Sequence record: PQ511148.1
Origin: Escherichia phage NHEP10
Reading direction: 5' to 3' (one strand)
DNA: 64,000 nt
In this document: positions 43,908 to 45,349 of the stretch, in pieces
Position numbering within the stretch: the stretch's first letter is position 1
How the letters are laid out: every line of letters starts with the position of its first letter
Translations under genes and position numbers: made by a program
The notes under the pieces: model-generated
The model's database searches: none
Told to the model about the DNA's origin: nothing
The model's input: the letters and a program-made list of their open reading frames with translations, nothing else

Positions 43908-44327
43908 TTATGCGAAAGCAGCTGGGCTATATTTTTTAATTTGGAATTCAGGAACTACCATGAACTGTCCAGCGAAAACGATGTTATAAAGCTTAACACC
44001 ATCTTCTACCCAACGGTCGCTAATAAATCCGGCGATTTGCTTAGTTTTCCACGGTGTTCCATCAGTTGCCGCAGCAATAGTGAATTCATGGTCTTTTTCA
44101 ACAGAAACTGATCTGCATAGTCCCCATTTGAACGCTTTTTCTTCTGGTTCAATGAACTGGCTTGAGACGTAGCCAATATTACCATTAGCATCACGAACTT
44201 TAACTTGGTTACGACCAAAAACCGGATCACTCACAGAAAGAACTTCAACCAACTTCCCGGCAACTTTAGAGCGAGAAGCAACAGATACATATACGTAATC
44301 ACCTGTAGAGAGATTTACAATATTCAT
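43908..44327 (-). CDS. hypothetical protein, paralog family member 1
   Basis: 139 aa; shares C-terminal motif ISD.WVEDG.KLYNIVF.G.F.VV with the two upstream ORFs. Confidence 0.5.
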   Translation of the reverse strand: MNIVNLSTGDYVYVSVASRSKVAGKLVEVLSVSDPVFGRNQVKVRDANGNIGYVSSQFIEPEEKAFKWGLCRSVSVEKDHEFTIAAATDGTPWKTKQIAGFISDRWVEDGVKLYNIVFAGQFMVVPEFQIKKYSPAAFA

Positions 44328-44336
44328 AATAATTCC

Positions 44337-44792
44337 TTAAGCTTTACGAGGAGACACATAGCGAGTGATTTCAGATTCTTTAACAACTCGGAAGTCACCT
44401 AAGAATACGATATTGTATAACTTTTCACCATCTTCAACCCATTGGTCACTAATGAAGCCACACATAGTATCAGTTTTGCTTGGATAACCGTATTCATCGA
44501 TGAAGTCAAATTCTTTATCAGTCTGGAATTCAACACCTTTACACAAGGCCCATTTGAACTGTACATTAGGTTCAGTAGAAGCAAAATGAGCACTCACACG
44601 AGTTTCCAGGAATTTAGGACTTACGTAAGCGTACTGAGTATCCTGACGTCCAAAACTAGGAATGATTCGAACTTTAACTTCTTTAATACGTCCCATGACA
44701 TTTGTGCGAAGTCCGACAACTTCAACCAGACGACCTGCGGCTTTAGACCGGGATGCAGTTGATACACGTTTAATTTCACCAATATTAATCAT
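44337..44792 (-). CDS. hypothetical protein, paralog family member 2
   Basis: 151 aa from internal Met with SD (track ORF to 44855 would span the promoter); same C-terminal motif. Confidence 0.5.
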   Translation of the reverse strand: MINIGEIKRVSTASRSKAAGRLVEVVGLRTNVMGRIKEVKVRIIPSFGRQDTQYAYVSPKFLETRVSAHFASTEPNVQFKWALCKGVEFQTDKEFDFIDEYGYPSKTDTMCGFISDQWVEDGEKLYNIVFLGDFRVVKESEITRYVSPRKA

Positions 44793-44854
44793 ATTTTTTC
44801 TCTCTTTGTTTAAGTTGAATTCATTATACTCCATCCATCCTTGGATGTAAAACA

Positions 44855-45349
44855 TTAATTAAGAATATTAACTACTGCACTACGTGGAACAACACTAAAA
44901 TCACCGGCATGAACAACGTTCAGAAGTTCAACCCCATCTTCAATCCACTGATCAGTTACCCATCCATTTACTGGACCAGCGAACGGGCGTCGAATTGAAA
45001 CATATTTACACAATAAATCAGTAGGCTCAATAGGCTTAATCAGAGTACCGTACATACAAGCGATATCCATATCAATACAGATGTCTTTAACTGGTTCTAC
45101 TTCTTCAATCAACAGTTCAAAGTCGGTGCTCGGAAGGGCGGTAGTAGAAATTGTACCGTGTGAATTTTTAATTTCTAAGAATAACCAAGGGCCTTCAGCT
45201 TGTTTGATGAAGTTAACAATAGTGAAACTATTACCTTGAGTGGCACCTAAAATTTCACAAAACTTTTCATAAGCTCGCACTGAAGCACCGTACCAGTTGA
45301 TTTGTTTTTCGTCTTTCAGGATGTAAGTAGCCGTAGTATTGATATTCAT
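44855..45349 (-). CDS. hypothetical protein, paralog family member 3
   Basis: 164 aa; C-terminal WVTDQWIEDGVELLNVVHAGDFSVVP. Confidence 0.5.
   Translation of the reverse strand: MNINTTATYILKDEKQINWYGASVRAYEKFCEILGATQGNSFTIVNFIKQAEGPWLFLEIKNSHGTISTTALPSTDFELLIEEVEPVKDICIDMDIACMYGTLIKPIEPTDLLCKYVSIRRPFAGPVNGWVTDQWIEDGVELLNVVHAGDFSVVPRSAVVNILN

Follow-up and report, generated by a model that had tools for sequence, protein, structure and literature searches.

Three MotB-family genes between dexA and cef in Escherichia phage NHEP10

A trio of MotB-family genes

We analysed a 64,000-nt stretch of the genome of Escherichia phage NHEP10 (PQ511148.1; hereafter the window), in which three consecutive open reading frames (ORFs) at positions 43908–45349 encode proteins of 139, 151 and 164 aa. 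The ORFs lie where an initial annotation of the sequence had placed them and, as it had proposed, they are tandem paralogs with a conserved C-terminal domain (CTD) in common. In the explanation that we favour, the locus represents the Tevenvirinae motB cluster in its Mosigvirus form, made up of motB.1, motB and a second motB copy that diverged from one another anciently; taken as a whole, functional and promoter inferences included, this explanation is highly probable. The gene trio is an already described and annotated feature of RB69-like phages and is not new.

All three proteins exceed the gathering threshold of the Pfam family PF17613 (MotB), which is set at 25 bits, and the database homologs that we examined all bear PF17613 too. 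The 151-aa protein, encoded at 44337–44792, scores 133.2 bits (E 1e-38), matches the MotB-like phrog_1671 (E 7.5e-65) and aligns with T4 MotB over its full length at 49% identity (BLASTP, E 1e-41), which identifies it as the MotB ortholog. The 139-aa protein (43908–44327) scores 75.6 bits (E 5e-21), matches phrog_1671 (E 6.6e-51) and is 37% identical to T4 MotB, identifying it as a second MotB copy. The 164-aa protein (44855–45349) scores 34.9 bits, matches phrog_2333 (E 7e-82) and is 37% identical to T4 MotB.1 over aa 3–136 (E 1e-22), identifying it as MotB.1.

The relationships among the three proteins are uneven. Homology between the 139- and 151-aa proteins runs from one end to the other, with 44% identity (BLASTP, E 5e-30), and both contain the KOW-like N-terminal domain of MotB proper ('Category 1' of PMC7827196) with its motif VS.ASRSK.AG.LVEV. 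The 164-aa protein matches each of the other two only in a C-terminal segment of 29–36 residues (BLASTP, E ~1e-6). It has no MotB KOW-type N-terminal domain, its own N-terminal domain being unrelated in sequence to theirs, and it belongs to the MotB.1 branch ('Category 2' of PMC7827196). The divergence of N-terminal halves that had been noted for all three proteins thus applies to the 164-aa protein, and not to the 139-/151-aa pair.

What unites the trio is the CTD. Pairwise alignment shows that its core, G[FW][IV][ST]D[QR]W[VI]EDG..L.N[IV]V..G.F.VV, is invariant in all three proteins, and the core is kept across 41–43 family members; the motif as first written down captured this shared core but was shifted by one residue in the 164-aa protein. 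The CTD spans aa 108–164 of MotB.1 (nt 44858–45028), aa 79–151 of MotB (nt 44340–44558) and aa 66–139 of the second MotB copy (nt 43911–44132). A tblastn search of all six frames of the window finds the domain in exactly these three places, at E 3e-9 to 3e-20 and with nothing else below E = 0.07, and a CTD hidden Markov model (HMM) run over the six frames scores 88–97 bits at each of the three sites and yields no further copy in the 64 kb. The 164-aa protein bears the MotB.1-type form of the domain (..WVTDQWIEDGVELLNVVHAG.FSVVPRS..), which is nearly invariant across that subfamily. That MotB and MotB.1 share a conserved CTD and differ in their N-terminal domains has been reported, and duplication has been suggested as the origin of one from the other (Patterson-West et al. 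2021, PMC7827196).

The start of the MotB ortholog deserves comment. Read from MINIGEIK, the 151-aa protein lines up with T4 MotB at its start and agrees with the annotations in RB69 and PhAPEC2, while a mechanical ORF of 172 aa begins at 44855, upstream of a promoter described below (copy B). The shorter protein is likely the true one, because the longer N-terminal extension contains the promoter. Across 44793–44855, many database gene calls make the MotB ortholog 165–175 aa long, with an ATG that overlaps the motB.1 stop codon.

Searching for relatives beyond the T4-like phages, with the family profile against 1.84 billion representative proteins, returned 28 clusters only, all of MotB or MotB.1 type by sequence; the wider distribution therefore yields no functional lead. 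One apparent out-of-group match, phage DCP80 (141 kb), was rejected as an incomplete Gaprivervirus record with the usual motB.1.

Genome context of the trio

All genes of the region are on the minus strand, in the transcription order dda (46103–47416), dexA (45416–46093), motB.1, motB, second motB, motB.2 (43324–43848), cef and a goF-like gene. The trio sits between dexA and cef, as in other Tevenvirinae motB loci. The 174-aa product of the motB.2 ORF is 33% identical to T4 MotB.2 and falls outside the MotB family; cef occupies 43039–43266 from its annotated start, the mechanical ORF reaching 43311. A 2.8-kb query of the region draws matches from 317 phage records, with coverage of 80% or more of the query in 145. 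The closest relatives, 96–98% identical over the whole region, are Mosigvirus (RB69-like) phages, among them NHEP29, JM10, PhAPEC2 and JS09, and in PhAPEC2 and RB69 the gene order and annotation are the same as in the window.

Predicted structures and proposed functions

AlphaFold2 models built from family alignments consist of two beta-barrels and a disordered linker in both MotB.1 and MotB. The MotB.1 model, with a mean predicted local distance difference test score (pLDDT) of 79.5, has a beta-rich N-terminal domain (aa 1–85), a linker in which residues 86–107 score below 50, and a CTD barrel (aa 108–164) that scores ~90 and comprises five strands in 57 residues, with a short turn preceding the last strand. 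The MotB model (151 aa, pLDDT 84.4) has a basic KOW/SH3-like N-terminal beta-barrel at aa 1–63, followed by the linker and an acidic CTD barrel, and the 139-aa paralog has a MotB-like two-domain plan with a short linker. Structure prediction, which the initial annotation had recommended for the shared domain, thus gives a barrel, and the shared CTD models as an acidic SH3/Tudor-like barrel of ~57–73 residues, a model that calls into question the CTD as the DNA-binding part. A Foldseek search against viral models retrieves the MotB and MotB.1 families, as expected. No significant match came up when the PDB was searched by sequence with the family's profile (best match KapB, E 0.78). The N-terminal domain of MotB.1 has been assigned an LSm-like fold, as in GoF and Frd.2 (Kim et al. 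2025, PMC12152347); when the profile of MotB.1 was compared with that of the neighbouring GoF-like protein, to check this published fold-level relation, no signal appeared.

The three proteins differ in charge. MotB (151 aa) has an isoelectric point (pI) of 8.9, divided between an N-terminal domain of pI 10.6 and a CTD of pI 4.7; the second MotB copy (139 aa) is near neutral, at pI 7.8; and MotB.1 (164 aa) is acidic throughout, at pI 4.6. DNA compaction by MotB is reportedly described by Son et al. (2021, in NAR).

In T4, MotB is made early and in abundance; it binds double-stranded DNA non-specifically with respect to sequence, copurifies with H-NS and StpA on DNA and changes the H-NS footprint; it de-represses part of the H-NS regulon and doubles the burst size, and its overexpression is toxic (PMC6070864, PMC7827196). 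Homology to this protein supports the assignment of the trio to host interaction, as members of a putative host-takeover family, in line with that part of the initial annotation, which had read the locus as a host-interaction or anti-defence array; the diversifying selection that completed that picture does not appear in the data given below. The basic N-terminal domain of the 151-aa protein is compatible with DNA binding of the T4 MotB type. In the mechanism that we propose, the 151-aa protein would do T4 MotB's job, probably via this KOW-like domain, and the shared, mostly acidic CTD barrel would serve as a common protein-interaction or assembly module and not as the main DNA binder. The N-terminal barrel would be the variable part: MotB has a basic KOW-like form, the second copy a neutral variant of KOW, and MotB.1 an acidic form that is unrelated in sequence. 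The other two paralogs may join the CTD module to other ligands. We infer that the three paralogs are functionally diverged and are not dosage copies.

Several points weigh against this assignment of roles. A T4 delta-motB.1 mutant has wild-type burst size and latent period (PMC12152347), and the roles suggested here for MotB.1 and the second MotB copy are putative. In addition, published HHpred results place the MotB CTD in the cold-shock OB-fold DNA-binding family (PMC7827196), so that the DNA-binding domain of MotB could be the CTD, and this OB-fold assignment is a live rival to the SH3/Tudor-like model. Carried to its conclusion, the OB-fold assignment would make all three proteins non-specific DNA-binding, nucleoid-associated proteins that act via the CTD, the trio mainly raising dosage or providing redundant coating of DNA. 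Such an account would draw on the HHpred result and on the conservation of the CTD, which in all three proteins exceeds that of every other part, but the barrel model speaks against the CTD as DNA binder, and we regard the account as unlikely.

A linker motif in MotB.1-type proteins

The low-confidence linker of the window MotB.1 contains the motif IDMDIACMYGTLIKPIEP (aa 92–109, nt 45023–45076). Its general form, [IV]D.D[IV]..[MA]Y...P, extends over ~17 residues and occurs in 94 of 123 proteins with a MotB.1-type barrel and in 0 of 140 with a MotB-type barrel. The motif varies in position: some proteins carry it N-terminally and others in the linker, and it accompanies N-terminal domains of both kinds. 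We regard it as a possible linear interaction motif.

A further idea starts from this motif. The CTD barrel would be a peptide- or protein-binding module of SH3/Tudor-like type and not an OB-fold, the mobile motif could be the barrel's own ligand, and the genes would form a small phage 'chromatin' kit. We consider this combination quite unlikely. If it were true, pairing of barrel and motif would give head-to-tail self-assembly, auto-inhibition or hetero-assembly of paralogs, and in the kit basic MotB would bind DNA while the acidic members would modulate MotB or capture host partners, e.g. H-NS.

A promoter repeat flanks motB.1

The segments at 45351–45409 (copy A, 5′ of motB.1) and 44793–44851 (copy B, 5′ of motB) form a 59-nt direct repeat on the minus strand that flanks motB.1 and is 78% identical. 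Each copy contains a predicted early promoter of sigma-70 type that matches 11 of 12 consensus positions. Specifically, copy A has a −35 element TTTACA at 45409–45404, a 17-nt spacer, a −10 element TATAAT at 45386–45381 and then a Shine-Dalgarno region, and copy B has the same −35 and −10 elements at 44851–44846 and 44828–44823, again with a 17-nt spacer. Over the 29-nt core, from −35 to −10, 27 positions are identical. The initial annotation had placed such a unit before each of the three genes, which is correct for two of them; the 139-aa gene follows motB after 9 nt with its own Shine-Dalgarno sequence (AAGGA) and no promoter, and is presumably co-transcribed with motB.

Each spacer can form a 6-bp hairpin, at 45390–45405 in copy A (−6.9 kcal/mol, z −0.25) and at 44832–44847 in copy B (−7.3 kcal/mol, z −1.26), and the only two differences between the cores are complementary in the hairpin stem (A-T in one copy, T-A in the other), making one compensatory pair. 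The boundary of the trio on the 3′ side is formed by the predicted early promoter of motB.2 (43846–43906), TTTACT-16-TATTAT, which lies in a hairpin at 43853–43897. This 61-nt unit of promoter plus hairpin has a folding energy of −23.9 kcal/mol (z −6.2), reached by 0 of 200 shuffled sequences, and the 3′ arm of the hairpin contains the motB.2 Shine-Dalgarno sequence. Read-through transcripts are predicted to hide the motB.2 ribosome-binding site in the hairpin, whereas transcripts from the gene's own promoter would not. A homologous unit precedes motB.2 in T4, RB68 and IME08, where motB.2 stands directly after dexA and before motB.1; in Mosigvirus it stands after the trio.

Repeated cassettes combining an early promoter with a stem-loop (PeSLs) that flank non-essential ORFs and mediate modular shuffling are known from T4-like phages (Arbiol et al. 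2010, PMC2839356; Comeau et al. 2014, PMC4122927), the T4/PST promoter type being TTTACW-N17-TAYWAT (PMC2839356, PMC4122927). We propose that the genes form two units with PeSL-type early promoters, one for motB.1 and one for motB together with the 139-aa gene, and that the hairpin-embedded motB.2 promoter would close the transcription unit. The promoter repeat would be the trace of cassette shuffling through recombination between promoter elements, by which a duplicate of the motB promoter may have come to stand before motB.1 in the Mosigvirus lineage. Recombination of this kind would also explain why motB.2 follows the trio here and precedes motB.1 in T4.

The similarity of the two copies might instead reflect no more than the shared consensus of two strong T4-type early promoters, with no signal of duplication or shuffling. 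Such promoters do have an extended consensus, and ~26 such sites lie on the minus strand of the window; moreover, the motB.1/motB pair is equalled in similarity by two others, 33923/5344 and 31616/31295. But the similarity exceeds what the consensus would bring, because the non-consensus spacers agree at 15 of 17 positions, a value tied as the highest with those two pairs, whereas 181 pairs of early-promoter-like sites across the window average 6.3 ± 2.5. It also runs over 59 nt into the leader, and the pairs of equal similarity elsewhere are better explained by a family of repeated cassettes than by a consensus alone. We thus find the consensus account very unlikely.

Units of this kind occur at various places in the window, a scatter that PeSL-type cassettes would be expected to show. 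Units related to that of motB.2 lie at 56551–56608 and 14602–14656, and a similar one lies at 43264–43313. The pairs 33923/5344 and 31616/31295, on the minus strand, share 15 of 17 or 15 of 16 spacer positions, and the units at 5344 and 33923 also resemble the T4 motB promoter (TTTACAAACTCTTGGGACCAGAGTATAAT).

Two considerations count against the shuffling reading. The spacer hairpins of both repeated promoters fold no better than shuffled sequence, so that the PeSL status of the repeated units rests on promoter, position and repeat, and both the predicted promoters and the co-transcription are deduced from the consensus. With these reservations, the repeat that flanks motB.1 and the relocated motB.2 unit together offer what appears to be a concrete case for PeSL-type cassette shuffling in the RB69 group. 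Neither RB69 nor motB occurs in the text of Comeau et al. 2014 (PMC4122927), and PeSLs are therefore not described there for the motB locus or for RB69.

The trio is old and under purifying selection

We estimated dN/dS, the ratio of non-synonymous to synonymous divergence, and pS, the proportion of synonymous sites that differ, by pairwise Nei-Gojobori comparison, per gene and per domain, with orthologs from PhAPEC2, RB69 and RB68. Between the paralogs, pS is 0.75–0.76 for all pairs of the trio, which is saturated, and nucleotide similarity among the coding regions is confined to patches of 14–49 nt with 71–89% identity. Between orthologs, dN/dS is 0–0.42 gene-wide and 0–0.14 for the second motB copy, whose product is 84–96% identical among orthologs in Mosigvirus and RB68-type phages. 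Among the domains, constraint is strongest on the CTD, with a dN/dS of 0–0.19, and N-terminal domains range from 0.04 to 0.5. The sole domain value above 0.5 is that of the 15-codon motB linker compared with PhAPEC2, which is 1.0 and derives from 3 non-synonymous and 1 synonymous differences. No omega above 1 was obtained in any comparison apart from this linker, where four substitutions do not make a meaningful estimate, and the diversifying selection that had been proposed is thus not borne out.

The distribution of the genes leads in the same direction. Counting copies per locus with the CTD-HMM over selected relatives, we found three in the window, PhAPEC2, RB69 and RB68, two in T4, ECML-134 (Tequatrovirus), IME08 (Dhakavirus), VR25 (Gaprivervirus) and Yersinia phage P8, and one in Klebsiella phage MY02 and Enterobacter phage IME523. 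Copy number (1, 2 or 3) differs only between genera and is fixed at three in all Mosigvirus loci examined. The motB.1–motB pair is common to Tequatrovirus, Mosigvirus, Dhakavirus and Gaprivervirus, and the pair therefore predates the split of these four genera.

These data show that the trio consists of old, conserved genes under purifying selection. The initial proposal, that an anti-defence or host-interaction gene was recently amplified into an 'accordion'-like array and is subject to diversifying selection, would suit the tandem arrangement, the common domain, the near-identical promoter units of two genes, the non-essential, plastic region and a chimeric protein that shows recombination between copies to occur (see below), but it is hardly credible given the saturated synonymous sites, the lack of near-identical nucleotide copies, the 44% identity of the motB copies with motB.1 similar only in the CTD core, the same three genes in RB69, PhAPEC2 and RB68, the motB.1–motB pair in four genera and the low gene-wide dN/dS. 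The initial annotation had itself named ancient, stable orthologs of the three genes in related phages as an outcome that would refute it, and this is the outcome obtained.

Several observations bear on recombination at the locus. A 3.8-kb metagenomic contig encodes a chimeric 173-aa protein (P0148), whose N-terminal part is that of the 151-aa MotB and whose C-terminal part is that of the 139-aa paralog; it resembles what unequal recombination between the tandem copies would yield, with two genes collapsed into one. Between the window and PhAPEC2, the CTD of motB.1 (44858–45028) has a dS of 0.49 and the N-terminal domain a dS of 0.06, a contrast that points to a tract of recombination with one end within the gene. 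The conserved CTD-coding DNA may be a crossover site for swapping of N-terminal domains in the MotB.1 subfamily.

RB68 (Tequatrovirus, NC_027979) is a further case. Its dexA protein is identical to that of T4, and its motB.2 and cef proteins are 93% and 97% identical to their T4 counterparts. Its motB.1–motB–motB trio is Mosigvirus-like, with a dS of 0.5–0.7 relative to the window, compared with flanks at more than 2.5 or saturated; the trio therefore moves between genera as a block.

Single-base errors in the T4 and RB69 references

The T4 reference (AF158101.6 / NC_000866.4) carries an extra G within motB.1 (tggattGgaagatggc). As a result, the annotated T4 MotB.1 has 119 aa (13.8 kDa) and ends inside the conserved core, the remainder (EDGVELLNVVHAGEYSVVPRSAVVAILN) lying in the next frame. 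Thirteen other T4 records, e.g. T4 'wild' (KJ477684), do not have the extra G and encode a 143-aa MotB.1 with the full domain. Judged from these records, the annotated 119-aa protein is the product of a one-base reference-sequence error and the real protein has 143 aa. MotB.1 is given as 13.8 kDa in Kim et al. 2025 (PMC12152347); because the reference has the extra G, published work on a 13.8-kDa MotB.1 used or assumed the truncated protein, and experiments with the 119-aa T4 'MotB.1' were done without most of the conserved domain.

RB69 has been described as having two motB copies, one motB.1 and a 29-aa peptide that matches the domain core (Patterson-West et al. 2021, PMC7827196). Two 1-nt insertions in the RB69 reference divide motB.1 into ORFs of 132 aa and 29 aa. 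Because the gene is split in this way, the 29-aa 'Category 3' peptide of PMC7827196 is the C-terminal end of motB.1.

Discussion

The family, its shared CTD, the multi-copy state in RB69 and the function of MotB have been published, and the genes are annotated in many Mosigvirus GenBank genomes. The value of the present analysis lies in a clean negative for 'recent amplification under diversifying selection'. Furthermore, workers on T4 early proteins may make use of the finding that single-base errors have truncated motB.1 in the T4 reference annotation and split it in that of RB69, as well as of the SH3/Tudor-like model of the shared domain and of the case for cassette shuffling presented by the promoter repeat and the relocated motB.2 unit.

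One of the closest known systems is T4. The window 151-aa protein shares with T4 MotB the N-terminal VS..SRSKAAG.LVEV motif and the CTD core, and its gene shares the upstream early promoter and the dexA...cef neighbourhood. Unlike T4 MotB, it is 11 residues shorter in the linker and has a more acidic CTD (pI 4.7 vs 8.6), and it is known from sequence alone; its gene is followed by the 139-aa paralog, which is absent from T4. The 164-aa protein aligns with T4 MotB.1 (UniProt P39415) over the N-terminal domain into the CTD, and in both phages the gene lies immediately upstream of motB. It differs in a 21-residue linker insertion with the IDMDIACMYGTLIKP motif, and its gene has a predicted promoter of its own, whereas T4 motB.1 follows motB.2 after 10 nt.

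The likeness to RB69 is closer still. The order dexA, motB.1, motB, motB-like, motB.2, cef is the same, protein identities are 91–100% for dexA, motB, the second motB copy, motB.2 and cef, and the split RB69 motB.1 matches the window protein at 97.6% (tblastn). In contrast to the RB69 reference (NC_004928), motB.1 is one intact 164-aa ORF in the window, as it is in PhAPEC2.

As regards PeSLs, the stem-loops of the two repeated window units are only 6 bp long and statistically indistinguishable from shuffled sequence, and the window units are putative members of this class. In other respects the window units resemble them: they are intergenic, lie in a plastic region, combine a predicted early promoter with a candidate stem-loop and are repeated in the genome, and the direct repeats flank a non-essential ORF, an arrangement that has been proposed to permit excision, insertion and shuffling.

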